Made by a program: the position numbers and the translations under genes. Shown here one piece after another: positions 2,919 to 21,999 of a stretch of 64,000 bases of DNA. The stretch's first letter is position 1. Each line of letters opens with the position of its first letter. The stretch comes from an uncultured Chloroflexia bacterium (GTDB taxonomy: Bacteria > Chloroflexota > Limnocylindria > QHBO01): contig CAWDTM010000008.1 of the NCBI GenBank assembly GCA_963805305.1, positions 328,317 to 392,316 of the forward strand, written 5' to 3'. The notes below the pieces were generated by a model that did no database searches, was not told the origin of the DNA, and saw nothing but the letters and a program-made list of their open reading frames with translations.

Positions 2919-3125
2919 AGGTCATGCTCCAACCGGCTGCGGTGCCAAACGACACCACGCCATCGGTAGGGTACGGACCGGCGGCACTGAATCTCAATGG
3001 CGCATTCGTACCCCTGCGGTCACCCCGCAGCGGGCATCGCACATGCCTCGGGTGGGACGCTAGACTCACATCCTGCCGGCGCTGCGCTTCATGACTGCGG
3101 CTCCGGCGGGTCGGAAGGAGGGCCC

Positions 3126-4076
3126 GTGTTCGGTCGCCGCAGGCGCAAGGAGGAGGCGGAGGAGTCCGCCCGCGAAGCCGAGCGCCGAGCGTTGTTCGCC
3201 GAGCTGGCGAAGCGACCGGAGTCCGTCTGCCCGTTCCTGGGCCTTGCCGATGCTCGGGCCGAGTACCGGCCCGAACCCAACGGCGGGCATCGCTGCTACG
3301 CGTTCGGTGATCCTGCCCCGCTCTCCGATGAGCAGCAGCGCCACGTGTGCCTGGAGCGCGGGTACTCGAACTGCCCCCGCTACCTGCGCGGTGTGCTGGT
3401 CATTCCCAGCGAGGAGCTCGAGGCGCTCCGACGGCCGCAGGCTCCCGCTCCGCCTCCGCCGCCACGGCCCGCGCCCGCATCCGGCGGTGGCGGTGGCCGT
3501 GGCCGTGGACTGGCGCTGGTTGGCGTCCTGCTGATCCTGGTCGCGGCGGTCGGCGTCGGCGGCTGGTACCTCCTGGGCAACCGGGGCAACGGTATCGCGG
3601 ACAACCCCACGAGCTCCCCGACGGCCACGCCCGCCGCCACCCAGTCAACCGCGCCCGCAGAGACTCCCATCGCGACGCCCGTGGCGACCCCTTCGGCGTC
3701 GGCCAGCCGGGCACCGACTCCGACTCCGGAGCCGACACCGGAAGCCAGTGACCGGTTCGACCACTACGAGGTGGGCGTTGGCCCAACGCGCTACACGCTC
3801 TTCACCGTCGATCCGCAGAAGGGGATCACCGGGTCTCGGGGCATCACCTTCGGCGCCTTCTCCCGCGCGCCGGTGCAGCCGTTCAAGGCCGCCAACGGCC
3901 TCGTCTACTGGCAGACCAGCGAGGGCGACCTGACGGGCTACGCCTACGTGTACGGTCAGTCGGGCGACTTCCAGCTGCGCGAGGTCTTCCTCACCCCGCA
4001 GGGCGCGCGGCGCGTCGTGCTCATGACCGCCGCGCAGGCCACGACCCTCCCGGCAGCGACACCCGCTCCGCGCTGA
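3126..4076 (+). CDS. Hypothetical single-pass membrane protein with an N-terminal cytoplasmic Cys/His cluster, a Pro/Thr-rich linker and a C-terminal extracytoplasmic domain
   Basis: Strong RBS GGAAGGAGGG 5 nt before GTG 3126. The N-terminus carries CPFLGL...HRCYAF...HVCLERGYSNCPRYL, followed by a TM helix (LALVGVLLILVAAVGVGGWYLLG) and a PTAT-rich low-complexity stretch. It lies directly upstream of mraZ. Confidence 0.6.
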   Translation: MFGRRRRKEEAEESAREAERRALFAELAKRPESVCPFLGLADARAEYRPEPNGGHRCYAFGDPAPLSDEQQRHVCLERGYSNCPRYLRGVLVIPSEELEALRRPQAPAPPPPPRPAPASGGGGGRGRGLALVGVLLILVAAVGVGGWYLLGNRGNGIADNPTSSPTATPAATQSTAPAETPIATPVATPSASASRAPTPTPEPTPEASDRFDHYEVGVGPTRYTLFTVDPQKGITGSRGITFGAFSRAPVQPFKAANGLVYWQTSEGDLTGYAYVYGQSGDFQLREVFLTPQGARRVVLMTAAQATTLPAATPAPR

Positions 4077-4170
4077 CCCGGCCGCCCCTGGGCGGGCATC
4101 CGTTCGCGGACTAGCGCCGACCTCCGGCGCCCCCGGTACGAAGGTCCCACGATCGCTGCGCCGATTTCCC

Positions 4171-4198
4171 TTGACGGGCAGCGCCTGCCCTGTAGAAT
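4171..4198 (+). promoter_or_regulatory. Pmra promoter candidate (-35 TTGACG 4171-4176, 16-nt spacer, -10 TAGAAT 4193-4198)
   Basis: Near-consensus hexamers about 55 nt upstream of the mraZ ATG. Confidence 0.5.
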
Positions 4199-4207
4199 GG
4201 CGGCCTG

Positions 4208-4243
4208 TGGGTCCAAATGGGGCCAAATGGGGAAGAGTGGTGG
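4208..4243 (+). promoter_or_regulatory. MraZ-type operator: four direct repeats (TGGGT / TGGGG / TGGGG / TGGTGG) at exact 10-bp periodicity
   Basis: gTGGGTccaaaTGGGGccaaaTGGGGaagagTGGTGG lies between the -10 and the mraZ start. This matches the spaced GTGGG/TGGGN direct-repeat architecture bound by MraZ in E. coli and Mollicutes. Confidence 0.5.
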
Positions 4244-4252
4244 ATCCCACGC

Positions 4253-4702
4253 ATGGCGCAGGCACCTTTTCTCACCGGTGAGTTCCGACACGCGCTCGAC
4301 GACCGCGGACGCGTCGCGATCCCGTCGCGCTTTCGTGCCCGTCTCGCCGAGGGGGCGACGCTGGCACGGTGGCTCGATCGCTGCCTGGGCGTCTTTCCCG
4401 CCGAGGAGTGGAACGTCCTGGCCGAGAAGATCCGTGCCCTGCCCATGACCAACCCCAACGCGCGCGAGTTCGCGCGCTTCATGTCCTCCGGCGCGGTGGA
4501 CGTGGAGCTCGATCGCCAGGGGCGTCTGCTCGTCCCGTCGTACCTGCGCGACTACGCCGCGCTGAACGAGGGCGAGGTCGTCGTGGTGGGGGCGCTGAAC
4601 CGCCTCGAGATCTGGGCTCCATCGGCATGGCAGCCGTACCGGACCCGGATCGAGGACGCGCCGGAGGAGCTGGCCGCTCACCTGGCCGAGCTCGGGATCT
4701 AG
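4253..4702 (+). CDS. mraZ: Transcriptional regulator MraZ
   Basis: Two MraZ/SpoVT-AbrB-type repeats are present (FLTGEFRHALDDRGRVAIPSRFR and VELDRQGRLLVPSYLR). It is the first gene of the dcw cluster. Confidence 0.9.
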   Translation: MAQAPFLTGEFRHALDDRGRVAIPSRFRARLAEGATLARWLDRCLGVFPAEEWNVLAEKIRALPMTNPNAREFARFMSSGAVDVELDRQGRLLVPSYLRDYAALNEGEVVVVGALNRLEIWAPSAWQPYRTRIEDAPEELAAHLAELGI

Positions 4703-4783
4703 GGCGCGCAACGCCATGACGCACGTTGCGCAGACCCCATTCATGCGTCTCCGGGCCGATCGGCCCGCCATCCGACCTGAGAG

Positions 4784-5749
4784 GTGCGGTCCATGGGAGA
4801 AGGGCACCTGCCGGTCCTCGTCGAGGAGGTTCTCGCCCTGCTCGACGTGCGGACGGGTAGCTCCGTGGCCGACTGCACGGTCGGAGGCGGTGGGCACGCC
4901 GAGCGGCTTCTGGAGACGACGTCACCGCATGGTCGCCTGCTCGGCCTCGACGCCGATCGGGCGGCCATCGCGGAGGCGTCACGCCACCTGGCGCGGTTCG
5001 GCGACCGCGTCGAGCTGCGCCAGGCCAACTTCTCGTCCATCCTCGACGAGGCCGCCACGACGGGCTTCCTGCCGCTCGACGCCGTCCTCTTCGACCTGGG
5101 CCTCTCGAGCTACCAGCTTGCCGATCCCGCGCGAGGCTTCAGCTTCGGGTCCGAATCGGCCCCGGACATGAGATTCGATGAAGAAGCAGGACTCTCCGCC
5201 CTCGACCTCATCGACGCGACCTCGGAACGAGAGCTCGCCGGAATCATCGCGACGTTTGGTGAGGAACGCCGTGCAGGCCGCATCGCGAAGGCGATCCTGG
5301 CGGCGCGCCAGGAAGGTCGCCTCGTGAGTGCCGCCGACCTGGCCGCCGTGGTCGCGTCCGCGGTCGGGCGGCGGGGGCCCGCCGACGCACGCCGCATCCA
5401 CCCAGCAACGCGCACCTTCCAGGCCTTGCGCATCGCGGTCAACCGGGAGATGGAGGTCCTTGGGGCGGGGCTCGCCGGGGCGCTGGCCGCACTCCGCCCG
5501 GGCGGCCGCCTGGCGGTCATCAGCTACCACTCCGGCGAGGACCGCATCGTCAAGCGCTTCATCGCGCGCGAGGGCCGTGACTGCATCGAGGATCCGTTGC
5601 CGCCGGTCTGCACCTGCGGCCACCGGGCGCAGCTGCGCCCGATCACCAAGGGCGCCGCGACGCCGACCGAAGCCGAGGTCGGCCGAAACCGCCGAGCCCG
5701 CAGCGCACGGCTGCGGGTGGCCGAGAAGCTCGCCCCGCTGGGCGCGTGA
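4784..5749 (+). CDS. rsmH: 16S rRNA (cytosine1402-N4)-methyltransferase RsmH (MraW)
   Basis: HLPVLVEEVL, DCTVGGGGHAE, FDLGLSSYQLADPARGF and ISYHSGEDRIVKRF are RsmH hallmarks. The start may be GTG 4784 or ATG 4793. Confidence 0.9.
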   Translation: MRSMGEGHLPVLVEEVLALLDVRTGSSVADCTVGGGGHAERLLETTSPHGRLLGLDADRAAIAEASRHLARFGDRVELRQANFSSILDEAATTGFLPLDAVLFDLGLSSYQLADPARGFSFGSESAPDMRFDEEAGLSALDLIDATSERELAGIIATFGEERRAGRIAKAILAARQEGRLVSAADLAAVVASAVGRRGPADARRIHPATRTFQALRIAVNREMEVLGAGLAGALAALRPGGRLAVISYHSGEDRIVKRFIAREGRDCIEDPLPPVCTCGHRAQLRPITKGAATPTEAEVGRNRRARSARLRVAEKLAPLGA

Positions 5750-5760
5750 GAGGAGGCATC

Positions 5761-5970
5761 ATGAGCCGAGGGAAACCACGACACCAGGCAAGCCGACGGC
5801 GCACGTACAGCGTGCGGCAGCGCGAGCTCCGCGACCGCCGCACGCGGGCCATTACCGAGGACCGTCGCTGGCTCGAGGAGAGCGTGGCGTTCGAGATCGA
5901 GGAGGGGCTTGACTTCGAGTCGCCGACCTCGTGGGGGGTCAGGCTGCACGGCCGCCCCACGGCCGCCTGA
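5761..5970 (+). CDS. Hypothetical small, highly basic protein (69 aa) inserted between rsmH and ftsL
   Basis: GAGAGGAGG RBS immediately upstream of ATG 5761. High GC3. It overlaps the rsmH stop and ends 1 nt before the ftsL ORF. No known family. Confidence 0.4.
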   Translation: MSRGKPRHQASRRRTYSVRQRELRDRRTRAITEDRRWLEESVAFEIEEGLDFESPTSWGVRLHGRPTAA

Positions 5971-5973
5971 TCC

Positions 5974-6411
5974 ATGGCGGTCATCGGCGCACGTCCCGCC
6001 ACGGGCATCGGCGTCCTCGGTCGCCGCTCGCGGCAGCGGCCGGTCCCCGGTCCACGGGGGCCGCGCGTGCGTCACGTGGGTGCCCTGCGCCAGCGACGGC
6101 AGGCCAGCGTTGCCGGGCTGCTGGCCACGATCGTCGCCGCGGCGGGGCTCGCATTCTTCTATCTGTCGCAATCGAGCCACGTAGCCGCGGTCGGCTACCA
6201 GATCGACAGCCTGCAGTCCCGGATCGCGACCCTGAAGGCCGAGCAGCAGCAGCTCGTGCTCCAGATCGGAACCGCCCGCGCCCCGTCGGAGGTCCTGAAC
6301 AAGGCAGGCACGGACCTGAAGCTTGTCCCCTTGCCGCAGTCGGCGGTCACGTTCGCCATCCCAAGCAGTGGCGCAGCCGGCGCCAGCTCATCGCCAGACA
6401 CCACCCACTGA
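5974..6411 (+). CDS. ftsL: Cell division protein FtsL (septum formation initiator family); true start may be internal
   Basis: Arg-rich N-tail, single TM (VAGLLATIVAAAGLAFFYL), then a coiled-coil (IDSLQSRIATLKAEQQQLVLQI). It occupies the canonical position between rsmH and ftsI. Confidence 0.6.
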   Translation: MAVIGARPATGIGVLGRRSRQRPVPGPRGPRVRHVGALRQRRQASVAGLLATIVAAAGLAFFYLSQSSHVAAVGYQIDSLQSRIATLKAEQQQLVLQIGTARAPSEVLNKAGTDLKLVPLPQSAVTFAIPSSGAAGASSSPDTTH

Positions 6412-6435
6412 GCCGGGCGTCCACCCGGACGCTCG

Positions 6436-8238
6436 ATGGAGACGCGCATGCTCGCCAGGACCGATAGTCGGGGTCGCGCCCTCTTCCTCCTGGTGGTGAT
6501 GGCCCTGATCGCCACCGTGATCGGCGGACGCCTGGCCTGGTGGCACGTGGCCCAGCACGACCGGCTTGCTGCCATGGCGGCGGACCAGCTGGCCCAGCGC
6601 GAGGAGATCCCCGCCGAGCGCGGCGAGATCCGCGACTCACGCGGCGTCCTGCTGGCCACATCGGTCCAGGTCTTCTCCATCTATGCCACCCCGCCACAGG
6701 TGACCGACAAGGAGAGCGAGGCCGCCATCCTCGCCAACGTGCTGTCAATGCCGGCCACCGACATGCTCGACCTGTTCACGAGCGGAAAGGCGTGGGTATG
6801 GCTGGAGCGCCGCGTGGATTCGAAGGTCTCCGACCGGGTCAGAGCCCTGGGGCTGCCCGGGATCGGCCTGCTCCCCGAGACGCGTCGCGTCTATCCGACC
6901 GCCGGCGCCGCACCGGGCTCCACCCTGGCATCCCAGCTGCTCGGCTACGTCAACGTGGACGGCACCGGCCAATATGGCGTCGAGGGCGCGGAGAACGCCC
7001 TCCTGACCGGCACCCCGGGGGCGGTCGTCGCCCAGGAGGACGTGGCGGGGCGCCAGATCGCCGACTCGGTGACGTCTGCCCAGGCCCCGGTGAATGGCGC
7101 GGATCTGACGCTCACCATCGATGCCGGCCTGCAGCATCTCCTCGAGGAGCGGATGTACCAGAGCTATGCGAAGAACCTGGCGCACGGGGCCACCGGCATC
7201 ATCATGGACGTCCATTCCGGCGCAATCCTGGCCATGGCCACCTTCCCGGCCTACGACGCGAACCAGTACAGCGCCACCGATCCGACCCTCTTCGACAACC
7301 CGGCGGTTGCCCATCCGTACGAGCCGGGGTCGGTCATGAAAGCCTTCACGATCGCCGCGGCCCTCGATGCCGGGGCGATCACGACCCAGACCACGGTCGT
7401 CGACGACAACAACCTGCGCCTGCGCGGGGTCCGGATCCAGAACGCCGACCGCTATGACTGGCCGTACGGCCACGGAAAGATCACGGCCCAGCAGGTGCTC
7501 CAGCTGTCGAACAACAACGGTGCCGCCCGCATCGGCCTGAAGCTGGGCGGTGAGAAGCTCTACCAGGCCTTCCGGCGCTACGGCTTCGGTCAGCCGACGG
7601 GCATCGACATCGCCGGCGAGGTGGGCGGCACGCTCTGGGACCCGGCCAGTCCCAACGCGTCGGGTGACCTGACCACCGCCCAGAACGCGTTCGGTCAGGG
7701 GCTCACCGTCACGGCCGTCCAGCTCGTCGCCGGGTACGCCGCGATCGCGAACGGCGGTGTCATGGTCACGCCGCACGTGATCGCCGGGTGGACCGACGCG
7801 AACGGCACCTACCACCCCACCGCGCGCCCGGAGGGCGAGCGGATCATGAAGCAGCAGACCGCTTCGACGGTGGTGCGGCTCCTGACGGGGGCCATCGACG
7901 GCGGGATCGCCAAGGCTGCCTCGGTGCCCGGATACGGCATCGCCGGGAAGACCGGTACGGCGCAGATCGCCGGTCCGGTGAAGGTCCGCGACGCGAGCGG
8001 CAAGCTCGTGACGCGAACCGAGTACATCGAAGGCTGGATCGACTCCTCGTTCATCGGTGTCTACCCCGCCAGCAACCCGCAGCTCGTCACGCTCATCCTC
8101 CTCCACCGCCCGTCGACCTGGGGTCGCTACCAGATGGTCGAGCGGCCGGAGGCGGTCTTCCACGACCTTGCGCCGCAGATCCTCGACTACCTGGCCATCC
8201 CGCCCGACCGGCCGACCACTCCGGTCGCCGCCCGATGA
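6436..8238 (+). CDS. ftsI: Peptidoglycan D,D-transpeptidase FtsI (class B PBP)
   Basis: N-terminal TM, PBP dimerisation domain, and transpeptidase motifs (SVMK-like STxK region, SNN, KTGTA). Confidence 0.85.
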   Translation: METRMLARTDSRGRALFLLVVMALIATVIGGRLAWWHVAQHDRLAAMAADQLAQREEIPAERGEIRDSRGVLLATSVQVFSIYATPPQVTDKESEAAILANVLSMPATDMLDLFTSGKAWVWLERRVDSKVSDRVRALGLPGIGLLPETRRVYPTAGAAPGSTLASQLLGYVNVDGTGQYGVEGAENALLTGTPGAVVAQEDVAGRQIADSVTSAQAPVNGADLTLTIDAGLQHLLEERMYQSYAKNLAHGATGIIMDVHSGAILAMATFPAYDANQYSATDPTLFDNPAVAHPYEPGSVMKAFTIAAALDAGAITTQTTVVDDNNLRLRGVRIQNADRYDWPYGHGKITAQQVLQLSNNNGAARIGLKLGGEKLYQAFRRYGFGQPTGIDIAGEVGGTLWDPASPNASGDLTTAQNAFGQGLTVTAVQLVAGYAAIANGGVMVTPHVIAGWTDANGTYHPTARPEGERIMKQQTASTVVRLLTGAIDGGIAKAASVPGYGIAGKTGTAQIAGPVKVRDASGKLVTRTEYIEGWIDSSFIGVYPASNPQLVTLILLHRPSTWGRYQMVERPEAVFHDLAPQILDYLAIPPDRPTTPVAAR

Positions 8239-9722
8239 GCGCTGCCCGACGACCAGGCGCAACCCTCCACGCGACGGAGGGGCTGGTAGACTCCGCGGGA
8301 ATCTCCGCAGGGTGTCGCGTGCCTCCGACGATCCGCATCGAGGACCTCCTCGCCGTCACCGGCGGCCGCCTTGTCAGCCCGAGCCGCGTCGAGGACTTCG
8401 CCGGGGCAGGCGTCGACTCGCGGGCGGTCGAGCCGGGCGCTCTGTTCGTGGCCCTTCCCGGCGAGCGGGTGGATGGACATCGCTTCGTCTCCGACGCGCT
8501 GCGGGCGGGTGCGGTCGCCGCGCTCGTCTCCGCCCCGGTCGAGATTCCGGCGGGCACAGATGCCGCGGTGGTCCGCGTGGGCGACACCCTCGTCGCGCTG
8601 CAGGAGCTGGCCGCGTGGTGGCGGTCCCGTTTCGCGGTCCGGGTCGTGGGCGTCACCGGGTCCACCGGCAAGACCCTCGCCAAGGAGACGATCGCCGACG
8701 TCCTATCGCGGGGACACCGTGTGCTCCGCAACGAGGGAAATCTCAACTCGGAGACCGGTCTTCCCATGACGCTCCTGCGGCTCGAGCCCGGCGACGAGCT
8801 CGCAGTCCTCGAGATGAGCATGTACACGGTCGGCGAGATCGCCCGCCTCGCGGAGATCGCGCGGCCCGAGGTCGGCGTGGTGCTGGCCGTGCACCCGACC
8901 CACCTTGAGCGCGCGGGAAGCATCGAGCGGATCGCCCAGGCCAAGGCCGAGCTGCCGCAGGCCCTGCCGCCAGATGGGCTGGCGGTCCTCAACGCCGACG
9001 ACCCACGGGTGGCGGCCATGCGCGCCGTGACGGCCGCGCCGGTGCGCACCTTCGGGGTCGAGTCCGAGGCGGACGTTCGCGCGACCGATGTCGTCAGCCA
9101 CGGGGCGCTCGGCACCGAGTTCACGATGCGCACTCCGTGGGGTGAGCGCCGGATCCGGAGCGGCACTCCCGGCCGGCACCTGGTGCCGCATGCCCTTGCC
9201 GCGGCGGCCGTCGCGGAGCACTTCGCGCTGCCCCTCGACGAGGTGGCCGCCGCCCTGGCGATCGGCAGCAGCGCTCCGCACCGGATGATGGTCACCGAGA
9301 CCGCCAGCGGGGCAACGCTGGTGGATGACACGTACAACGCCTCGCCGGTGAGCGTGCGCGCGGCACTCGCCTTCCTCGCGGAGACGCCCGTGCCGACGGG
9401 GCGCCGACGCCTCGCCGTGCTGGGCGACATGCTCGAGCTCGGGCCCGAGGAGGAGCGGCTCCACCTCGAGATCGGCGCGGAGGCCGCATCGCGGCTCGAC
9501 GCGCTCGTGGCGGTGGGTCCGCGCGGCCGCTGGATCGCGGCTGCCGCTCGCTCGGCTGGGCTGGCTTCGGTCCTGACCGCCGATGACGCGGACGACGCGG
9601 CGCGTGTCGTGGAGCGCGACCTCGCTCCCGGCGTCGGCGACCTGCTCCTGGTGAAGGGCTCCCGGGGCGTGGAGCTGGATCGGGTCGTGGAAGCGCTCAT
9701 CGGGGCAGGGAGCCGCCGCTGA
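8235..9722 (+). CDS. murF: UDP-N-acetylmuramoyl-tripeptide--D-alanyl-D-alanine ligase MurF
   Basis: Mur ligase motifs GVTGSTGKT, plus the MurF-specific NEGNLNSETGLPMTLL and DSRAVEPGALFVALPGERVDGHRF. The ATG overlaps the ftsI stop (ATGA). Confidence 0.85.
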   Translation: MSAARRPGATLHATEGLVDSAGISAGCRVPPTIRIEDLLAVTGGRLVSPSRVEDFAGAGVDSRAVEPGALFVALPGERVDGHRFVSDALRAGAVAALVSAPVEIPAGTDAAVVRVGDTLVALQELAAWWRSRFAVRVVGVTGSTGKTLAKETIADVLSRGHRVLRNEGNLNSETGLPMTLLRLEPGDELAVLEMSMYTVGEIARLAEIARPEVGVVLAVHPTHLERAGSIERIAQAKAELPQALPPDGLAVLNADDPRVAAMRAVTAAPVRTFGVESEADVRATDVVSHGALGTEFTMRTPWGERRIRSGTPGRHLVPHALAAAAVAEHFALPLDEVAAALAIGSSAPHRMMVTETASGATLVDDTYNASPVSVRAALAFLAETPVPTGRRRLAVLGDMLELGPEEERLHLEIGAEAASRLDALVAVGPRGRWIAAAARSAGLASVLTADDADDAARVVERDLAPGVGDLLLVKGSRGVELDRVVEALIGAGSRR

Positions 9723-10699
9723 TGCTGGCCATCGTCGTCGGCCTGCTGCTGGCCTTCGGGGGAGTGGTCGCGCTCGCGCCGGTCTACATCGGCCTCCTGC
9801 AGCGACTGGGCTTCGGCAAGCAGATCCGGGTCGAGGGCCCGGAGGGCCATTTCGGCAAGGCCGGCACGCCCACCATGGGCGGCATGCTCATGATCGTGGT
9901 GGTCATGTTCCTGGCCATGGCCATGCGCATCGAGGACGTCAGCACGCTGACGCCCATGCTGACCCTGGTCGGCGTGGGGATTCTTGGAGCCATCGACGAC
10001 TACGTGAATGCCCAGACCGGCATCGGCATGCGAGGACGCTACAAGCTGATCTGGCAGACGCTGGTGGCGCTGCTGGCGGCGTGGTACATCCAGCGTCACT
10101 TCCTCATCAACGAGATCAACGTCCCGCTCGTTGGCGACGTGGGCATCCTGCCCATCCTCTTCATCCTCTTCGTGGCGTTCGTCATCGTCGCGATGAGCAA
10201 TGGTGTGAACCTGACCGACGGCCTGGACGGGCTGGCCGGCGGGGTGCTCATCTTCAGCTTCGTGGCGTACCTGCTCATCGCGCTGGTCGCCGTCCCGGGG
10301 AAGGAGTCGCAGCCGCACCTGGCCGTCTTCTGCGCGCTGATCATCGGTGCCCTGATGGGATTCCTGTGGTTCAACGTCCACCCCGCGCAGATCTTCATGG
10401 GAGACTCGGGCGCCCTGGGCCTGGGAGCCACCCTGGCGGTGGTGGCGACGATCACCACCCAGCTGCTGCTGCTGGCCGTGATCGGTGTCGTCTTCCTGGC
10501 GGTCACCCTGTCGGTCGTCCTGCAGGTCGGCTCGTTCAAGCTTCGCGGCCGGCGGATCTTCCGCATGGCGCCGCTCCAGCACCATTTCGAGCTGATCGGC
10601 TGGGCGGAGGAGAAGATCACCGTCCGCTTCTGGATCGTCTCCGCCCTGGCGGGCCTCCTGGGCTTCAGCCTCTTCCTGGCGACGGTGAACGGGCTGTAG
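9722..10699 (+). CDS. mraY: Phospho-N-acetylmuramoyl-pentapeptide-transferase MraY
   Basis: Polytopic membrane protein with MraY motifs (KxGTPTMGG, NLTDGLDGLA, MGDxGA). One nucleotide overlaps the murF stop. Confidence 0.9.
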   Translation: MLAIVVGLLLAFGGVVALAPVYIGLLQRLGFGKQIRVEGPEGHFGKAGTPTMGGMLMIVVVMFLAMAMRIEDVSTLTPMLTLVGVGILGAIDDYVNAQTGIGMRGRYKLIWQTLVALLAAWYIQRHFLINEINVPLVGDVGILPILFILFVAFVIVAMSNGVNLTDGLDGLAGGVLIFSFVAYLLIALVAVPGKESQPHLAVFCALIIGALMGFLWFNVHPAQIFMGDSGALGLGATLAVVATITTQLLLLAVIGVVFLAVTLSVVLQVGSFKLRGRRIFRMAPLQHHFELIGWAEEKITVRFWIVSALAGLLGFSLFLATVNGL

Positions 10700-10707
10700 G
10701 TGGACCG

Positions 10708-12147
10708 ATGATGACCGCCCGCCAGCCTGTCCGTTCGCGCGCCGACCTGGTCGGCCGTCGCGTGATGGTGCTTGGCCTGGCCCGATCGGGCGTCGCGGCC
10801 GCCCGCTACCTGGCCGATGCCGGCGCGGCGGTCACCGCCTACGACCGACGATCACCCGACGAGCTCGCCGCCGCCGCCGCCTCGCTCGCCGGCCGGCAGG
10901 TCGAGCTGGCCCTGGGGATCACCCCCGGCGAGGCAGCCGGGCTGGTCGCGGCGGCCGATCTGCTCGTAACCAGCCCGTCGATCTCCGCGCGCTTCCCGAC
11001 CACCGACGCGTGGCTGCGCGAGGCGCTCGCCGCGGCCGAGTCCGGCGGGGTCGAGCTCGTGAGCGAGGTGGAGCTCTTCCTCCGCCTGACCCGGGCACAG
11101 ATCCTGGCGGTGACCGGGACGAAGGGCAAGACCACGACCACCGCGCTGCTTGGCGCCATCCTCGCGGAGGCAGGGGTGCCCCACGTGGTGGGCGGCAACA
11201 TCGGGCAGCCGCTCGTCGAGAGCGCGGACGACCTCGACGCCGCGACGTGGGCGGTCCTCGAGCTCTCCGAGCTCCAGCTGCCGACAATCTCACGCGGGGC
11301 CCGGGTGGCGGTCTACACGAACATCCTGGCGGATCACCTCGATCGCCACGGGACGGTGGATGCCTATCGCGCGGTGAAGGCGCGCCTGGCGCAGCTCACG
11401 GTGGCGCAGGGCGGGGCGCTGATCCTCAATGCCGACGACCCAGGCTGCCGGGCCCTGGCGGAATCGCTGGAGGGCGGCGAGATCCATTGGTACCTCGGAG
11501 CGGACGAACGGCGCGAGGCCTGGGAGGCCGATGGCTGGCTCCACCTCGGTCCGGATCGGCTCATGCCGGTGGCCGACGTGCCGCTGCCCGGTGCCCACCT
11601 GCGCGCCGATGTCCTCGCCGCGGCGCTCGGAGCTCGCCGGGCCGGCGTCGGTACGCCTGCCATCGCGCAGGCGATCCGGGCCTTCCGGGGCGTGCCGCAC
11701 CGGCTCGAGACGCTGGGATCCCGGGACGGGGTGCGCTGGGTCAACGACTCGCAGGCGACGATCCCGGCCGCCGCAACGGCCGCCCTGGATGCTTTCGGCG
11801 CCGCCCCGCTGGTGGTCATCGCCGGAGGGAAGGACAAGGGCCTCGACTACGGAGAGCTCGCGGATCGCATCGCGGCGCGCTGCCGGGCCGCCATCCTCCT
11901 GGGAGAGACCGCGCCGGAGCTGGCCAGGCTGGTCGGGGACCGCCGCCCCGTGCGACGAGCCGGCTCCATGGACGAGGCCGTGGCGATCGCCGCCGAGATC
12001 GCGCGTCCCGGGGATGTCGTGCTCCTATCGCCGGCGGCCGCGAGCTTCGACATGTTCACCGACTACGCGGCCCGCGGAGAGGCCTTCCGCGCGGCCGCCA
12101 TTGCCATTGGCGTGACAGCGGCCGACGCGGGAGACGAGGAACGATGA
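10708..12147 (+). CDS. murD: UDP-N-acetylmuramoylalanine--D-glutamate ligase MurD
   Basis: VLGLARSG...AVTGTKGKTTTTAL... matches the MurD N-terminus and P-loop. This is the in-frame internal start of ORF 10081..12147. Confidence 0.9.
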   Translation: MMTARQPVRSRADLVGRRVMVLGLARSGVAAARYLADAGAAVTAYDRRSPDELAAAAASLAGRQVELALGITPGEAAGLVAAADLLVTSPSISARFPTTDAWLREALAAAESGGVELVSEVELFLRLTRAQILAVTGTKGKTTTTALLGAILAEAGVPHVVGGNIGQPLVESADDLDAATWAVLELSELQLPTISRGARVAVYTNILADHLDRHGTVDAYRAVKARLAQLTVAQGGALILNADDPGCRALAESLEGGEIHWYLGADERREAWEADGWLHLGPDRLMPVADVPLPGAHLRADVLAAALGARRAGVGTPAIAQAIRAFRGVPHRLETLGSRDGVRWVNDSQATIPAAATAALDAFGAAPLVVIAGGKDKGLDYGELADRIAARCRAAILLGETAPELARLVGDRRPVRRAGSMDEAVAIAAEIARPGDVVLLSPAAASFDMFTDYAARGEAFRAAAIAIGVTAADAGDEER

Positions 12148-13412
12148 CCGCGGGTGCCGTGGCCGCCGCCTCCGCGCGCCGCCGGCGGGACCGGAGCGGC
12201 GTGCAGCGCGACCGCCATCAGCCGTCGTATCCGCTCCTGGTGGCGGTCATCGGGCTCGTGGCCGCCGGCGTGGTGATGGTCTACTCCGCCTCCTCGGTGC
12301 GGGCCTACTTCTCGTCCGACGATCCGTCGATGTACGGGATCCAGCAGCTCATCTGGGCCGGCCTCGGGGTCGGGGCCATGATCCTTGCCAGTCGCATCGA
12401 CTTCCGATGGCTGCGGTACATGGCGATCCCGGCCTACGTGCTGACCATGGCCCTGCTCGTCGCGGTGCTCATCCCGGGGATCGGCACGTCGGTCGCGGGC
12501 TCTCGGCGCTGGATCGTCCTGCCGGGCATGGGCGGGTTCCAGCCCGCCGAGCTGGCCAAGCTGGCGATCGTCCTCTACCTAGCCCACTGGCTTGACCGGC
12601 GCGGGGCGACGGCCGGCAGCTTCTGGAACGGGCTCGTGCCGTTCAGCCTGCTCGTCGCACCGGCGTTCCTGCTCATCTCGCTCGAGCCCGATCTCGGGAC
12701 GGCGGGCGTGTTCGTCGTGGCCGCGCTATCGGTCTTCTTCATGGCCGGCGCCAACCTCCTGTACCTGGGCGCCATCGGCTCGGCCGTGGTTGCAGCGGCC
12801 GTCTTGATGATCACGAGCACGCCGTACCAGCTCCAGCGCGTGGAGAACTTCCTGGATCCCTTCCGCGACCCGCTGCACACCGGCTACAACGCCGTGCAGG
12901 CGCTCATGGCGCTCGCCCTGGGCGGGGTGACCGGGCTGGGCCTGGGCGCGTCCCGCCAGAAGTTCCTCTACCTGCCCGCGCCATCCACGGACTTCATCTT
13001 CGCGATCATCGGCGAGGAGTGGGGGCTGGTCGGGACGCTCGTCGTCGTCGCCCTCTTCCTGGTCATCGCCTACCAGGGCTACAAGATCGCGATCCATGCG
13101 CCGGACACGTTCTCCGGCCTCCTCGCCTGCGGCCTCACGACCTGGCTCGTCGTCCAGGCTTTCGTCAACATGGCCGTGGTGACCGCCCTCGCGCCGGTCA
13201 CCGGGATTCCGCTGCCGTTCATCAGCTACGGCGGCTCGGCGCTCACCATCAACCTCGTGGCCGTGGGGATCCTGCTCTCCATCAGCCGCGAGACCACGCA
13301 GTCAGGATCCTTGCTCGATGCGGTGTTCGGTGTCGGGCGGCGGGACCGGCGGGCACATCTACCCCGCGCTGGCCGTCGCACGGGCTCTGCGCGACGCGCA
13401 GCCCGACCTTGA
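12144..13412 (+). CDS. ftsW: Peptidoglycan glycosyltransferase FtsW (SEDS family)
   Basis: Multi-TM SEDS protein with (GSRRWIVLPGMGGFQPAELAKL; PAPSTDFIFAIIGEEWG). The ATG overlaps the murD stop. The C-terminal 30 aa run into murG. Confidence 0.85.
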   Translation: MTAGAVAAASARRRRDRSGVQRDRHQPSYPLLVAVIGLVAAGVVMVYSASSVRAYFSSDDPSMYGIQQLIWAGLGVGAMILASRIDFRWLRYMAIPAYVLTMALLVAVLIPGIGTSVAGSRRWIVLPGMGGFQPAELAKLAIVLYLAHWLDRRGATAGSFWNGLVPFSLLVAPAFLLISLEPDLGTAGVFVVAALSVFFMAGANLLYLGAIGSAVVAAAVLMITSTPYQLQRVENFLDPFRDPLHTGYNAVQALMALALGGVTGLGLGASRQKFLYLPAPSTDFIFAIIGEEWGLVGTLVVVALFLVIAYQGYKIAIHAPDTFSGLLACGLTTWLVVQAFVNMAVVTALAPVTGIPLPFISYGGSALTINLVAVGILLSISRETTQSGSLLDAVFGVGRRDRRAHLPRAGRRTGSARRAARP

Positions 13413-14445
13413 GCTGAGCTACATCGGCGGAGTTCGCGGCCTGGAGCGCAGGCTCGTGGGCGACGCCGGCGTGCTGCCATACCACCAATTGGTGGTGCGC
13501 TCGCTGCGCACAGCCGGCCGCGACGTGCACGTCGTGCTGGACCCGCTGCGGGTCGCCGCAAGCGTCCCGCAGGCCTGGCTCCTTCTCGGCCGGCTCCGGC
13601 CGGCCGCGATCTTCAGCACCGGTGGCTACCTTGCCATGCCGCTGGTGGTCGCCGCGCGAGCACGGGGCATTCCCACCCTGGTCTGGGAGGGCAACGTGAT
13701 CGCGGGGCGCTCGACGCGCGCCGTCGGCAGGGTCGCCACGCGGGTGGCGGTCTCCTTCCCGCCCACCCTCGCCGCGTTTCCCGGGCGCTCGTTCGTGTCC
13801 GGCACCCCCATTCGCTCGTTCGAGGGGGTCGATCGCGCGGCGGCGCGTGCAGCGCTGGGCGTCGAGGCGGATGATCGGCTCATGCTCGTCTTCGGAGGCT
13901 CCCAGGCGGTCACCACCCTGAACCGCGCGGTGGAAGGCGCCCTGCCGTCGCTGGTCGGCGAATGGCGGATCCTGCACGTGGCCGGCGCCACCGGGCTCGC
14001 CGATGCGCAGCGGGCGAGGGACGGACTGGCCGAGCGCCTGCGTGATCGCTACCGACCGGAGGCCTTCATCGCCGACGGAATGGGGCCTGCTCTCGTCGCG
14101 GCGGACCTGGTCGTGGGACGCGCGGGATCGTCCACCTGCGCCGAGGTGGCCGCCACCGGCACGCCATCGATCCTAGTGCCCTATCCACACGCCGGCGCGC
14201 ACCAGGACGCGAACGCGAGCTGGCTTGGCGACCAGGGCGCGGCGGTCGTCATTGCGGACCATGCCCTGTCGGCCGAACGACTCGTGGCGGAGGCTCGACG
14301 CCTGCGCGACGACACGGTGCGGCTCTCGATGGCCGACGCCGCGCGCCGGCTCGGGCGTCCCCACGCGGCCGAGGCCCTCGCGGCGGAGCTGCTCGCGATG
14401 GCCACCGGTGCGGCGCTCCCGTCCGAAACCGGGACGGCCGCATGA
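13318..14445 (+). CDS. murG: Undecaprenyldiphospho-muramoylpentapeptide beta-N-acetylglucosaminyltransferase MurG
   Basis: N-terminal GGGTGGHIYPALAVA motif of MurG (GT28 family). Confidence 0.9.
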   Translation: MRCSVSGGGTGGHIYPALAVARALRDAQPDLELSYIGGVRGLERRLVGDAGVLPYHQLVVRSLRTAGRDVHVVLDPLRVAASVPQAWLLLGRLRPAAIFSTGGYLAMPLVVAARARGIPTLVWEGNVIAGRSTRAVGRVATRVAVSFPPTLAAFPGRSFVSGTPIRSFEGVDRAAARAALGVEADDRLMLVFGGSQAVTTLNRAVEGALPSLVGEWRILHVAGATGLADAQRARDGLAERLRDRYRPEAFIADGMGPALVAADLVVGRAGSSTCAEVAATGTPSILVPYPHAGAHQDANASWLGDQGAAVVIADHALSAERLVAEARRLRDDTVRLSMADAARRLGRPHAAEALAAELLAMATGAALPSETGTAA

Positions 14446-15386
14446 GCAGCCGAACAGGCGGGGAGCTCGCCCGACTCGATGCGCTGGCCGCGGAGCGGGA
14501 GATCGCGCTCGAACGGGACGCCCCGCTGGCGCCGTTCACAACGCTCCGGGTCGGAGGTCCGGCAGATCGACTGCTCGTGGCCCGCGACCGGTCCACGCTC
14601 CTCGCGGGCCTGCGGCTCGCGCGCGACGCGGGCGCACCGTGCTTTGTGCTCGGCAACGGCAGCGACCTCGTGGTCGCGGATGCCGGGGTGCGTGGCCTGG
14701 TGCTGCGCAACCGGGCCCGGTCGGTGACGGTCGAGGGCACGACCGTCGACGCCGACGCGGGCGCGGCGATGGCCATGCTGGTGAAGCGCTGCGTGGGTGC
14801 CGGCCTGGAAGGGCTCGAGTTCGGCATCAGCATCCCCGGCACGCTCGGCGGGGCGGTCTGGGCCAACGCGGGCGCCCACGGTCGCGAGATGCGCGACGTG
14901 GTCATCAGCGTCGAATCGTGGAGCGCGGCGGCCGACGAGACGGTGAGCAACGGGGCGAAGGCCTGCGCCTTCGCATACCGGGAGTCGCGGTTCAAGCACA
15001 GCGGCGAGACGGTGATTGCAGCGACGCTCCGGCTCCAGCGCGGCGACCCCGCGGCCGTCGCGGCACGCGTGGCGGAGCATCAGGCCCAGCGCCTGGCAAC
15101 GCAGCCGCTGGCGGACCAGAACGCGGGGAGCGTCTTCCGCAACCCGCCGGGCGACTTCGCGGGGCGTCTCGCCGACGCAGCCGGCCTCAAGGGATTCCGG
15201 ATCGGCACCGCGAGCGTGAGCACGAAGCACGCGAACTTCATCGTCAGCGACCGCGGCGGGACAGCAGCGGACGTCCGCGCCGTCGGCGAGCACGTCCGAC
15301 GGCTGGTCGCGGACCGCTTCGGCGTAGCACTCCAGTACGAGATCGAGTTCGTCGGCGACTGGTCGGCACCGGAGGAGCAGCCATGA
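14442..15386 (+). CDS. murB: UDP-N-acetylenolpyruvoylglucosamine reductase MurB
   Basis: FAD-binding MurB motifs (TTLRVGGPADRL, VLGNGSDLVV). ATGA overlap with murG. Confidence 0.9.
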   Translation: MSSRTGGELARLDALAAEREIALERDAPLAPFTTLRVGGPADRLLVARDRSTLLAGLRLARDAGAPCFVLGNGSDLVVADAGVRGLVLRNRARSVTVEGTTVDADAGAAMAMLVKRCVGAGLEGLEFGISIPGTLGGAVWANAGAHGREMRDVVISVESWSAAADETVSNGAKACAFAYRESRFKHSGETVIAATLRLQRGDPAAVAARVAEHQAQRLATQPLADQNAGSVFRNPPGDFAGRLADAAGLKGFRIGTASVSTKHANFIVSDRGGTAADVRAVGEHVRRLVADRFGVALQYEIEFVGDWSAPEEQP

Positions 15387-16543
15387 CCCTGCCCGATTCG
15401 TCCCGCCTCCGGGTGGGCGTCTTTGCCGGCGGACGCTCCGCCGAGCACGAGGTGAGCATCAGCTCGGCCGAGGCGGTGCTGCGTGCCATCGACAGGACGC
15501 GCTTCACGCCGTATCTGATCTACATCGATCGTGACGGCCGATGGCATCTGCCCGCCGGTCCGGCGCCCGAGCTCGGCGAGAGCTCCCTGGCGGCCCTGCT
15601 CGGCGCCGAGACGCCCACGACACAGGTCGCGCGCCTGCGGGCGGGGGCAGGGCTGCCGGTATCGACCGGGGGAGGCAGCGGCGCGCTCGAGTCGCGAAAC
15701 GCCCTGCGGTCGCTCGCCGAGGCGATCGACATCGCATTCCTCGTCGTCCACGGTCCGTTCGGCGAGGACGGGACCCTGCAGGGCTTCCTGGAGATGGCGG
15801 GCATCCCATACACCGGGGCCGGGGTGCTGGCCAGCGCGGTGGCGATGGACAAGATCGTCTTCAAGGACCTGATGCGGGGTCATGGCCTGCCGGTGCTCGA
15901 CTATGCGTGGTTCCGTCGGTCGGCCTGGCGCTCCTCGACGGAGCGGGTGCTGCGCGACGCCCTGGCCGCGACGGGGGAGCGGTGCGTCGTGAAGCCCGCC
16001 CGCCTCGGGAGCAGCGTGGGCATGACCCTGGTCCACGGGGAGGACGAGCTGCCGGCGGCGCTCGACGAGGCGTTCCGCTTCGATTCCAAGGCGATCGTCG
16101 AGCGCTATCTGCCGCACGCGCGCGAGCTCGAATGCGGTGTCCTTGGCAACGAGGAGCCGATCGTCTTCGAGCCCGGCGAGGTGCGCAGCCACCACGAGTG
16201 GTACGACTACGAGTCGAAGTACGTGGAAGGCATGGCGGATGTCGATGCCAGGGCGGACGTCGACGGCGCGCTCGCCGCGCGCGTCAAGGATCTGGCGCTG
16301 GCCGCCTACCGTGCCGTGGACGCGGCGGGCCTCGCGCGCGTGGACTTCCTCGTCAACCCCGACGGCGCGTACATCAGCGAGATGAACACGCTACCCGGTT
16401 TCACCGCGACGAGCATGTACCCCCGCCAGGCTGAGCTTGCCGGCATCGGGTTCGGTGAGCTGATCGCGCGCCTCGTCGACCTTGGGCTCGCGGCCTCCGC
16501 CGCCGAGGAGTCGCGGGCCGGCGGGGCAGGGGACCCGGCGTGA
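15383..16543 (+). CDS. ddl: D-alanine--D-alanine ligase
   Basis: RVGVFAGGRSAEHEVSISSA at the N-terminus and an ATP-grasp C-terminus (EMNTLPGFTATSMYP). This is the in-frame internal start of ORF 14225..16543, overlapping the murB stop. Confidence 0.9.
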   Translation: MTLPDSSRLRVGVFAGGRSAEHEVSISSAEAVLRAIDRTRFTPYLIYIDRDGRWHLPAGPAPELGESSLAALLGAETPTTQVARLRAGAGLPVSTGGGSGALESRNALRSLAEAIDIAFLVVHGPFGEDGTLQGFLEMAGIPYTGAGVLASAVAMDKIVFKDLMRGHGLPVLDYAWFRRSAWRSSTERVLRDALAATGERCVVKPARLGSSVGMTLVHGEDELPAALDEAFRFDSKAIVERYLPHARELECGVLGNEEPIVFEPGEVRSHHEWYDYESKYVEGMADVDARADVDGALAARVKDLALAAYRAVDAAGLARVDFLVNPDGAYISEMNTLPGFTATSMYPRQAELAGIGFGELIARLVDLGLAASAAEESRAGGAGDPA

Positions 16544-17511
16544 AGGTCAAGCGCGGCACCGGCGCCCAACCTCGCCCGCTGCCGAGCCAATCGCGTCCGT
16601 CATCCGGTTCGCGGGGAGCTGGCCGCCGCGCCCCTGCGCCTTCGACTCGTCCGCGACGGGGCGCGGCGCATGCCCGGAAAGGCGGAACCCGCCTGCGCAT
16701 GCCCCGGTTCTCCCGCGGAGCGTCCGGCGGAAGGATCCTTGCCGCCCTCCTGGCGCTCGCCTTCGCCGGCGGCCTGCTCTTCTGTGTCAACGGACCGTGG
16801 CTCCGCGTCTCGTCGATCGCGTGGGCGGGGACCCGCTACACCTCGGCGGACCGCCTGACGGCGGTCCTCGACCCGGTGCGTGGCGAGAGCCTGCTTGCCG
16901 TGGACTCCGCGTCGCTCGCCGAACGCCTCGCCACGCTCCCGGCCGTTGCGTCGGCCCGGGTCGAGACGCGCTTCCCGAACGGCGTTTCGGTCCAGGTCGT
17001 CGAGAAGGAGCCGGCCAGCGTGTGGCGGACTCCGGCCGTCCAGCTGGTGGTCGGCAGCGACGGAACCGTCTTCGGCGAGGTGGCCCTGAGCGCCACGCTG
17101 CCGTCGGATCTGGCGAGCCTCCCGTACATCATCGACCAGCGCCAGGCATCACGGAACATCATCATCGGCGACCGGATCCCGGCCGACGTGATGGCCACCG
17201 CGCTCCAGCTGGAGCGGGTCGCTCCGGCGGCGATGGGGTCGTCCGCGAAGGGGTTCTCGGTCGTGCTCGACGACACCTGCGGCTACACCCTGCGGCCGCG
17301 TCCATCGGGCACCTGGCAGGCCGTCTTCGGGCTGTACGGCCTCGACATTGGCGATGCCGCCGCGGTCGACACGCGCATCGCCGCCCAGGTCGCGGCGGTT
17401 AGGACCCTGTTTGCCGCGCACCGCGAGAACACGGTGGGCTGGGTGGATGCCCGCAACCCGGGGAAGGTATATTGGCGGGCGAACGGCCCGGGTGGCTCGG
17501 ACGCATGCTGA
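16540..17511 (+). CDS. ftsQ: Cell division protein FtsQ/DivIB (POTRA domain) with a long Arg/Pro-rich N-terminal tail
   Basis: TM helix (ILAALLALAFAGGLLF) followed by a POTRA-like region. GTG start overlaps the ddl stop. Position in the cluster is canonical. Confidence 0.75.
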   Translation: MKVKRGTGAQPRPLPSQSRPSSGSRGAGRRAPAPSTRPRRGAAHARKGGTRLRMPRFSRGASGGRILAALLALAFAGGLLFCVNGPWLRVSSIAWAGTRYTSADRLTAVLDPVRGESLLAVDSASLAERLATLPAVASARVETRFPNGVSVQVVEKEPASVWRTPAVQLVVGSDGTVFGEVALSATLPSDLASLPYIIDQRQASRNIIIGDRIPADVMATALQLERVAPAAMGSSAKGFSVVLDDTCGYTLRPRPSGTWQAVFGLYGLDIGDAAAVDTRIAAQVAAVRTLFAAHRENTVGWVDARNPGKVYWRANGPGGSDAC

Positions 17512-17556
17512 CGTCGGCCCGCGGTCCCCATCCTGCGGCTATCGGTACCCTCCCTG

Positions 17557-17880
17557 ATGTGGCTTCCCCTGATCGGCCTCGCGGTCGGAGTCGCGCTCGG
17601 GCTCATCTTCGGCGTCAACGTCAGCCCCGACCTGGCGCGCTACAGCGCGGTCGGGATCCTGGCCGGCCTCGACTCGGTCCTGGGCGCCATCCGCGCTCAG
17701 CTCGACGCGCACTACGACAACCGCGTCTTCCTTTCCGGATTCGTGACGAACGCGCTCGTCGCGGTCCTGCTGACCTTCGTCGGCGATCGACTGGGAATCG
17801 ACCTGTACCTGGTCGCCCTGTTCGCGTTCGGCCTGCGCATCTTCCAAAACGTGGCGCTCATCCGGCGCCACTTCCTGTAA
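17557..17880 (+). CDS. sbp: Small basic protein Sbp (DUF1290 family membrane protein)
   Basis: The MWLPLIGLAVGVALG...LDSVLGAIRAQL...FAFGLRIFQNVALIRRHFL pattern typifies DUF1290, which is encoded between divIB/ftsQ and ftsA in Firmicutes-like dcw clusters. Confidence 0.75.
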   Translation: MWLPLIGLAVGVALGLIFGVNVSPDLARYSAVGILAGLDSVLGAIRAQLDAHYDNRVFLSGFVTNALVAVLLTFVGDRLGIDLYLVALFAFGLRIFQNVALIRRHFL

Positions 17881-17928
17881 GGTCGATTCATCTGGGCGCC
17901 CCTCGCCGGGCGCACGTCAGGAGGTAGC

Positions 17929-19167
17929 TTGGACAGGGAAACGGTCCTGGTCGGAATCGACGCCGGCACGACCAAGGTGACGACCCTCATCGGCGAGGTC
18001 GGTCGGACGGGCGACGTCAACATCATCGGCTACGGCATCGGCCCGTCGGTCGGGATGAAGAAGGGGATGGTCGCCAACATCGACCAGACGGTGAACTCGG
18101 TTGCGCAGAGCATCGAGAAGGCGGAGCGCCTCTCCGGCTACAAGATCAGCTCGGCGTTCGTCGCGGTCGGCGGCAGCCACATCACCAGCCAGAACAGCCG
18201 TGGCGTGGTCGCGGTCTCCGGTCACAAGCGCGAGGTCAGCCGCGAGGACGTCGCCCGGGCGACCGACGCCGCCAAGGCGATCCAGGTCCCCTCCAACCGC
18301 GAGCTCCTCCACGTCATTCCACGCGGCTTCATCGTGGACGGCCAGGACGGGATCAAGGATCCGCTGGGAATGAGCGCCGTGCGCCTCGAGGTCGAGACCC
18401 ATATCGTCGCCGGGGCGGCGACCTCCGTCCAGAACCTGTCCAAGTGCATCACCCAGGCGAGTATCCAGATCGACGAGCTCGTGATCAGCTCCCTCGCCGC
18501 GGCCGAGGCGGTGCTCACCGACACGGAGAAGGACCTGGGGGTCCTCGTCGCGGACATCGGTGGCGGCACCACGGACATCGCGATCTTCGTGGACGGCGCG
18601 GTGTACCACTCCGCGGTCCTGCCGGTGGGCGGCATCAACGTCACCAACGACGTGGCCATTGGCCTGCGCACCAGCCTGAACCTCGCGGAGGAGATCAAGA
18701 TCAAGCACGGGACGGCCAACCTCGCCGAGGTCCAGCCCGAGGAGCTGCTCAACGTCGCGGTCCTCGGCGAGGATGGCGGCCAGACCATTCAGCGCCGCCG
18801 TCTCTCCGAGATCATCGAGGCCCGGATGGGCGAGATCTTCTCGCTGATCGCCGAGGAGGTGAAGCGCTCGGGCCACGCCGGGATGCTGCCCGCGGGCGCG
18901 GTGCTGACCGGTGGCGGGGCGCGGCTGGGGGGTGCGGCAGAGCTGGCGCGCGAGGTGCTGAACATGCCGGTCCGCATCGGTGCCCCCCAGGGCGTGGGCG
19001 GCCTCATGGACCAGCTCTCCAACCCCGCCTTCTCGACCCCCATCGGCCTGCTCCTGTGGGGCGCCGATCACCTGGGCGAGGAGCCCATCGGCTATGCCAC
19101 CAACTCGTCGTTCTCCGGTGGCATGGGCCGGGTCGTCGACTGGCTGCGAGGACTCTTCCCGGGCTGA
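17929..19167 (+). CDS. ftsA: Cell division protein FtsA (actin-like ATPase)
   Basis: [10 protein letters not shown]...[14 protein letters not shown]... matches FtsA phosphate-binding motifs. TTG start with an AGGAGG RBS. Confidence 0.9.
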
Positions 19168-19342
19168 TCCACGCCCATCCGGTGTACAGACCGGCGACCC
19201 GTCCACCGCGCGTTGGCGGAGTGTGGATAACTTCCCGCGTGGCTGTGGAAAAATCCCCAGCGAGCATCGCAGCGGCTCGCTATCATCGGACAAACCCGCG
19301 CGAGACGGGTCGATACCACCACACCCGCGCAGGAGATCTCGA

Positions 19343-20593: not shown

Positions 20594-20620
20594 GCCGCGG
20601 GTCGGCCCCGCAGACGTCCC

Positions 20621-21355: not shown

Positions 21356-21404
21356 GGTGGCGGGCGGCCGAGCCGCCGATAGGCGCTGGTATCCTTGGCT
21401 CGAG

Positions 21405-21656
21405 ATGAGCCAGGTTGTGGCGTCCTTCGTGACGCTGTTGAGCGCCGTCTACTCGATCCTGATCCTGCTCCGGGTGGTGCTGAGCTGGACGAGCCCGATG
21501 GGCGGGGGCCCGTTCACCGCATTCGTGTACCAGGTCACCGAGCCGGTCCTGGCGCCCATCAGGCGACTGCTGCCGCCCATGGGCGGGCTCGACTGGTCGC
21601 CCTTCGTCGCGCTGCTGCTCCTGAGCGTGGTCGTGCGGCTCTTCGCTCGATTCTGA
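21405..21656 (+). CDS. yggT: YggT-family membrane protein (YlmG)
   Basis: Small two-TM protein (SAVYSILILLRVVLSW...PFVALLLLSVVVRLFARF) following yggS. Confidence 0.75.
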   Translation: MSQVVASFVTLLSAVYSILILLRVVLSWTSPMGGGPFTAFVYQVTEPVLAPIRRLLPPMGGLDWSPFVALLLLSVVVRLFARF

Positions 21657-21943: not shown

Positions 21944-21999
21944 TCGGAGCGGCGATTGCCGGTCCGAGCTCGGCACGGCTATACTGCGGCTCCCCTCGT

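Follow-up and report, generated by a model that had tools for sequence, protein, structure and literature searches.

[quoted passage not shown] We addressed these questions in a window of 64,000 nucleotides (the whole stretch of DNA analysed), with a G+C content of 69.8%. Judged by its arrangement and by comparison with its relatives, the element is a canonical MraZ autoregulatory operator, new in this lineage only. We consider it highly probable that the reading holds as a whole, that is, that MraZ binds the repeats as its operator, occludes the promoter, and so negatively autoregulates the dcw cluster.

On the plus strand, the region reads cc-CTTGACGGG-cagcgcctgccctg-TAGAAT-GGCGgcct-GTGGGT-ccaa-ATGGGG-ccaa-ATGGGG-aaga-GTGGTG-gatcccacgc-ATG; its features are listed in Table 1. 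The original prediction placed a TTGACG-N16-TAGAAT promoter ahead of mraZ, and this was confirmed at 4171-4198. The sigma-70-like site matches the consensus at ten of 12 positions and is the only such site detected by a promoter scan of positions 3000-6000, for which 50 shuffles gave an expectation of 0.0. Near-consensus hexamers and a spacer within the 16-18 nt range are the marks of a sigma-70-type (housekeeping) promoter. When the scan was run over the rest of the cluster (4300-21950), no further sigma-70 consensus site was found on the plus strand. The site is proposed, as part of the same claim as the repression model and with the same high degree of confidence, as the main sigma-70-type promoter serving the dcw cluster, a counterpart of Pmra equipped with a canonical MraZ operator; the downstream dcw genes are presumably driven by it. 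The geometry of the promoter predicts a transcription start around 4204-4207, at the 5' edge of box 1, and with it a leader of approximately 47 nt ahead of the mraZ ATG.

Table 1. Coordinates of the features of the mraZ promoter region and of the genes that follow it (positions within the window)
Feature	Position	Strand	Basis and remarks
-35 hexamer TTGACG	4171-4176	+	Promoter scan; within conserved block CTTGACGGG (4170-4178); invariant in 81/81 aligned sequences
-10 hexamer TAGAAT	4193-4198	+	16 nt past the -35; TAKART in relatives
Candidate box 0 ATGGCG	4197-4202	+	10 bp 5' of box 1; overlaps last T of the -10 and the discriminator
Expected transcription start	4204-4207	+	Inferred from promoter geometry; 6-9 nt past the -10, at 5' edge of box 1
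Predicted MraZ box 1 GTGGGT	4207-4212	+	GTGG kept in 78-81/81; positions 5-6 variable
Predicted MraZ box 2 ATGGGG	4217-4222	+	RTGGGG in 79/80 correctly anchored sequences (A 48, G 31)
Predicted MraZ box 3 ATGGGG	4227-4232	+	RTGGGG in 80/80 correctly anchored sequences (A 62, G 18)
Predicted MraZ box 4 GTGGTG	4237-4242	+	RTGGKR in phase in 80/80
mraZ, 149 aa	4253-4702	+	Pfam PF02381, E 2e-30; homologues 149 aa
Rest of the dcw cluster	4784-20593	+	Pfam assignments

Two further features of the promoter were noted. Just 5' of the -35 (4163-4170; alignment columns -8 to -1), an A-rich tract (AAAA in the clade, ATTT in the window) followed by CCC is conserved clade-wide and could be an UP-like element. 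The spacer between the -35 and the -10 contains a perfect palindrome, GGGCAG-CGC-CTGCCC, at 4176-4190; only its outer GGG...CCC is conserved and the inner positions lack covariation, so that it was dropped as a second operator, which it probably is not.

Four direct repeats with GTG(G/T) or TGGG cores lie in the promoter region, between the -10 hexamer (4193-4198) and the mraZ ATG (4253). The claim that four TGG units stand at exact 10-bp phase in this interval holds, the T of each falling at 4208, 4218, 4228, and 4238. The last unit, first written as TGGTGG, keeps the phase and is better taken as GTGGTG; a fifth in-phase unit, ATGGCG (4197-4202, T at 4198), had been missed, and is here called candidate box 0. 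The proposed resemblance to the direct repeats bound by MraZ is also upheld, since the boxes match both the published GTG(G/T) box with its 10-bp period and the sequence of Escherichia coli Pmra. Boxes 2 and 3 have A at position 1, however, where the published consensus strictly has G.

The phased arrangement is found nowhere else in the 64 kb. A pattern of three TGGG-N6 units has a single match and none in 100 dinucleotide-preserving shuffles; four TGG-N7 units give two overlapping matches, both at the operator, and again none in 100 shuffles; and three RTGG-N6 units match in three overlapping registers, all at the operator, where the shuffle mean is 0.07. These matches start at 4197/4198, that is, from candidate box 0. 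A search of the window for other MraZ sites with the stricter three-box pattern, one mismatch being allowed, returned only overlapping registers of the operator itself.

Conservation was assessed in a one-genome-per-species scan that gave 80 loci from the class Limnocylindria of the Chloroflexota, with MraZ proteins 74-96% identical, or 81 with the window. The alignment was anchored on the -35; in one sequence (L030) the anchor had fallen wrongly on a second TTGAC within the spacer, which leaves 80 correctly anchored sequences. From the -35 through box 4, all 81 sequences align with zero indels, and TGG is retained at all five phased positions in every one of them. The check suggested in the original prediction, alignment of related mraZ upstream regions for phased TGGGG repeats, therefore came out in its favour. 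Three bases of the -10 (the initial T, the A, and the final T) are retained in 80-81 of the 81 aligned sequences, and the consensus of the boxes is GTGGNN (box 1), RTGGGG (boxes 2 and 3), and RTGGKR (box 4). Candidate box 0, with the consensus RTGGCG, is present in 80/80 correctly anchored sequences and is as invariant as the boxes. It could belong to the operator; alternatively, it could owe its conservation solely to being -10 and discriminator sequence of the promoter, a possibility that has to be set against the main reading.

Compared pairwise, the sequences have a mean identity of 0.91 within the boxes and of 0.90 within the promoter elements, as against 0.37 in the core of the -35/-10 spacer; for mraZ the corresponding values are 0.60 (third codon positions) and 0.88 (first and second positions). 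Because unconstrained positions are near saturation while the boxes are almost invariant, the boxes must be under strong purifying selection. The 81-species alignment in this way separates functional positions (the -35, the -10, the discriminator, the TGG cores, and the purine at position 1) from those that are free to vary. Identical or near-identical MraZ proteins occur in metagenome-assembled genomes (MAGs) labelled Candidatus Limnocylindria or Chloroflexota. Six MAGs labelled Steroidobacteraceae, Zixiibacteriota, or Dormiibacterota (L006, L038, L054, L066, L014, and L032) also have mraZ loci 77-92% identical to the Limnocylindria type and share its promoter and operator; their contigs are probably mis-binned or mislabelled.

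Selection on G-rich repeats could in principle act on something other than an operator. The repeats might form a G-quadruplex, in the non-template DNA or in the RNA of the 5' untranslated region (UTR), that modulates transcription or translation of mraZ, as has been proposed for PmraZ of Staphylococcus aureus, and the window does offer tracts of GGG, GGGG, and GGGG spaced 10 nt apart. A canonical quadruplex, however, requires four tracts of at least three G; the window has three, and two are found in 54/81 relatives and four in only 6/81. In addition, the invariant T of TGG, the purine before it, and the exact 10-bp register fit readout by a protein in the major groove and not a quadruplex. 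Since the numbers of G tracts are not conserved, a canonical quadruplex was rejected as the main function, and we give this explanation little credence; a two-tetrad structure could still be assembled from GG tracts.

Boxes 1-4 are all expected to be transcribed, and the conserved segment could accordingly be, instead of a DNA operator, a structured 5' UTR RNA such as a leader or riboswitch, or else a signal for translation in which box 4 is the Shine-Dalgarno sequence. The 3' part of box 4, GGTGGA (4239-4244), is situated 8 nt before the ATG and is the best Shine-Dalgarno-like match in the window, although its pairing with a generic anti-Shine-Dalgarno sequence is weak (-4.9 kcal/mol). Against an RNA element, 4205-4275 is predicted to fold no better than shuffled sequences do (z = 0.17), RNAalifold applied to 23 diverse UTRs gave 0 consensus pairs, and Rfam had zero matches on the segment, even at E values up to 1; on these three results a leader or riboswitch was rejected. 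As to translation, the phase of box 4 with boxes 1-3 is fixed, yet the gap between it and the start codon varies between 7 and 26 nt across relatives. Six relatives have TGGGG or TGGGA at box 4 some 25 nt from the ATG, and Shine-Dalgarno-like pairing is weak among relatives generally (mean -4.2 kcal/mol). The variable spacing to the ATG, set against the fixed phase of the boxes, led us to reject a Shine-Dalgarno role as the cause of box 4 conservation. Taken together, the two forms of this alternative merit very little credence, and the DNA operator is the reading with which we proceed.

The repeats might also be coding sequence. The longest open reading frame (ORF) of the gene starts at an in-frame ATG at 4217, inside box 2, and would encode 161 aa, giving MraZ an N-terminal extension; a few database entries of 160 aa exist. 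An upstream ATG that is in frame and open occurs in just 8/81 relatives, however, and for that reason we take 4253 as the start of mraZ and reject the extension. The lengths of homologues agree: among the 120 close homologues listed, 116 are 148-150 aa long, three are 160 aa, and one is 145 aa. MraZ proteins in the Protein Data Bank (PDB) align from residue 3-6 of the 149-aa form. The chance that the repeats encode protein is, on this evidence, close to negligible. The ATG triplets within ATGGGG boxes (4217-4252) do create in-frame upstream starts, as in P0050, P0064, P0098 (160 aa), and P0314 (182 aa), and public gene calls that extend MraZ N-terminally through the operator are an annotation artefact.

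The protein encoded from 4253 has the residues expected of an MraZ that reads such boxes. It contains two DXXXR motifs, D16-R20 (DDRGR, 4298-4312) and D87-R91 (DRQGR), and both, as DDRGR and D(R/K)QGR, are retained in 81/81 loci. Its matches in the PDB include MraZ of Mycoplasma pneumoniae (1n0e, E 1.2e-15) and of M. genitalium (9qlg/9r4j, E 4.8e-13). In the M. genitalium protein, the major groove is read by Lys13, Arg15, and Arg86, positioned by Asp11 and Asp82, and any of the substitutions K13A, R15A, or R86A abolishes binding (PMC12957436). By the offset of the alignment, D16/R18/R20 and D87/R91 of the window protein correspond to D11/K13/R15 and D82/R86. A cognate MraZ with two DXXXR motifs and base-contacting basic residues is therefore present, Lys13 being replaced by Arg. 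This replacement also weighs against the main reading to the extent that details of recognition may differ.

Behind mraZ, Pfam matches give the order RsmH/MraW, an FtsL-sized ORF, an FtsI-type penicillin-binding protein, a Mur ligase, MraY, MurD, and FtsW, followed by MurG, MurB, an unnamed ORF, FtsQ, FtsA, and FtsZ. Only one Mur ligase ORF (7788-9722) lies between ftsI and mraY; it could be MurE or MurF. murC was not recognised between murG/murB and ftsQ (13318-16434), where a 297-aa ORF without a Pfam match (15541-16434) is found instead. Directly 5' of the promoter, the ORF at 2997-4076 encodes a 359-aa protein that includes a hydrophobic segment and a linker rich in Pro, Ala, and Thr, and that likewise has no Pfam match; in two sister-clade loci (L084 and L085), the gene upstream of mraZ carries a LysM domain.

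With promoter, boxes, and protein in place, the following mechanism can be proposed. The operator would consist of direct RTGG(G/T) boxes repeated every 10 bp, four in number or perhaps five, extending from about -8 to +37 relative to the expected start. A 10-bp period would place all boxes on one face of the helix, and MraZ would read them through two DXXXR "cradle" motifs, D16/R18/R20 and D87/R91. The array of boxes opens at the -10 and start site and continues into the first transcribed nucleotides, so that an MraZ oligomer bound to it should block either the binding or the escape of RNA polymerase. The outcome would be that mraZ, together with the division and cell-wall genes behind it, is negatively autoregulated, as happens in E. 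coli and Bacillus subtilis. MraZ very probably binds the TGG boxes to control its own operon; the conserved autoregulatory circuit that had been predicted is thus supported by box conservation in 81/81 sequences and by the contact residues of MraZ, from which we infer binding and regulation.

The sign of regulation deserves separate consideration, as MraZ could bind the repeats and act as an activator, or in a dual role, and not as a repressor. An activator role has been described in mycoplasmas, according to a passage quoted in PMC7761207, and the report of MraZ as an activator in Mycoplasma gallisepticum (likewise quoted there) counts against the main reading in that the sign is not universal. 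Nevertheless, with the -35 and -10 at ten of 12 consensus positions, an activator seems unnecessary. The placement of boxes 3' of the -10 and over the expected start is that seen in E. coli, in which MraZ acts as a repressor, and in Burkholderia cenocepacia, in which it binds the boxes, and in B. subtilis MraZ represses through boxes in its promoter region (bioRxiv 10.1101/2022.02.09.479790). Activation is on these grounds unlikely, and repression remains the preferred account.

The operator was also placed in a wider survey. A metagenome scan with a diverse MraZ alignment contributed 80 further loci. Runs of at least three phased TG(G/T) units with a 10-bp period occur upstream of mraZ in most of approximately 90 further diverse loci. 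Loci of a sister clade (labelled Limnocylindrales, MraZ about 50% identical) have three GTGG boxes, or two in one case, after a similar promoter; their leader is much longer and they lack box 0. Among 45 unique operators, four boxes were counted in 23, three in 12, and five or six in ten. Boxes that abut or overlap the -10 are common in other lineages (e.g., TATAATGTGGGG, TAGAATGTGGGA, and GTGGTATTAT). An operator of four boxes, or one with a box over the -10, is thus nothing out of the ordinary, both being common in the survey. The idea that four boxes are exceptional outside the Mollicutes was rejected; B. cenocepacia has four, and four is the commonest count.

One lead concerns recognition itself. 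The residue equivalent to Lys13 is Arg in all 120 close homologues listed and in 81/81 loci of the window's clade; in the family as a whole, 135 of 150 representatives have Lys, as do 119/119 sister-clade proteins. In the window's clade, position 1 of the boxes is relaxed to A or G, and Lys13 can contact the base at this position in the M. genitalium cryo-EM structure (PMC12957436). Outside the clade, ATGG boxes are frequent among lineages of the Arg type, as in L086 (ATGGAG/ATGTGG/ATGGGG) and in a Dehalococcoidia MAG, L087 (TTGGGG/ATGGGG/ATGGGG). Counted over unique operators, A stands at position 1 in 45% of boxes of the Arg type versus 15% of the Lys type (Fisher p 2e-5, a value that ignores kinship). 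A strict rule by which Lys and Arg specify G and A, respectively, was rejected; L094 and L125 have Arg and all boxes GTGG, and L129 and L136 have Lys and mostly ATGG. The relation between residue and position 1 is a tendency that gives a hint at most. We entertain only tentatively, and with some doubt, the idea that the Limnocylindria operator is a specificity variant, defined by Arg for Lys13, A or G at position 1, and five phased units that cover the -10. If the relation is causal, a single residue would tune the recognition of boxes by MraZ.

These results extend the MraZ autoregulatory circuit, as a computational prediction with strong comparative evidence, to an uncultured class of soil and freshwater Chloroflexota. 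They leave the understanding of MraZ unchanged, and their practical value lies in annotation and in a supply of natural variants of operator and protein. Two of these variants, Arg for Lys13 and A at box position 1, offer a means of testing the recognition rules proposed from the 2026 cryo-EM structure.

Of the known systems, E. coli Pmra (mraZ1p) has essentially the layout of the window. In the K-12 genome sequence it reads TTGACA-N18-TAAACT-7 nt-GTGGGaaattGTGGGgcaaaGTGGG-19 nt-ATG. Both regions combine a sigma-70 promoter with direct GTGGG-type boxes that begin within 7-8 nt of the -10 and keep an exact 10-bp period. E. coli MraZ represses through this operator (Eraso et al. 2014, as quoted by later papers), and transcription is stated to start 38 bp upstream of mraZ (quoted in PMC7761207). 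E. coli has three boxes, all GTGGG, whereas the window has four, to which a candidate fifth over the -10 may be added, and its boxes combine TGGGG cores with either A or G at position 1; the Lys of DSKGR in E. coli MraZ is Arg in the DDRGR of the window protein.

The promoter of B. cenocepacia (PmraBc) is likewise from a high-GC bacterium. It has four 7-nt repeats separated by 3-nt spacers, located 3' of the -10 over the mapped start and carried on a fragment bound in electrophoretic mobility shift assays (EMSA), and it drives mraZ through ftsZ as their main or only promoter (PMC7761207). The window shares the four repeats, the 10-bp period, the position 3' of the -10, and the overlap with the start, which in the window is a predicted one. 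B. cenocepacia differs in being a proteobacterium, in its 100-nt leader as opposed to approximately 47 nt, and in that its MraZ binding was demonstrated by EMSA, whereas that in the window is deduced from comparison. Corynebacterium glutamicum is cited in the same paper as another high-GC bacterium in which MraZ sites have been studied. The original suggestion that the circuit had gone unmapped in a high-GC lineage therefore stands for the Limnocylindria, and our search of the literature found no account of MraZ sites in the Chloroflexota; it fails for high-GC bacteria in general.

In B. subtilis, three GTGG[A/T]G boxes (MBRs) with 4-nt spacers are unique in the genome and required for repression (bioRxiv 10.1101/2022.02.09.479790). 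They resemble those of the window as GTGG-core direct repeats of 10-bp period in Pmra, and the genome-wide uniqueness of the triple repeat there is paralleled by the uniqueness of the phased pattern in the window here. Removal of the B. subtilis repeats took the -35/-10 region with it, an indication that they are located within the core promoter, whereas the boxes of the window lie downstream of it.

A structural reference is M. genitalium, whose boxes are GTG(G/T) followed by six spacer nucleotides, usually three to a promoter but four in certain mycoplasmas, and whose start site is inside box 1 (PMC12957436). Cryo-EM of MraZ on a four-box DNA showed one subunit per box (PMC12957436; PDB 9R4J, 9SZ7, and 9SX6). 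The window likewise has four boxes, with a 6-nt spacing of their cores, and its D16/R18/R20/D87/R91 take the places of D11/K13/R15/D82/R86. The two differ in that M. genitalium has an AT-rich genome, TGT as well as TGG cores, and Lys13, the position occupied in the Limnocylindria protein by Arg.
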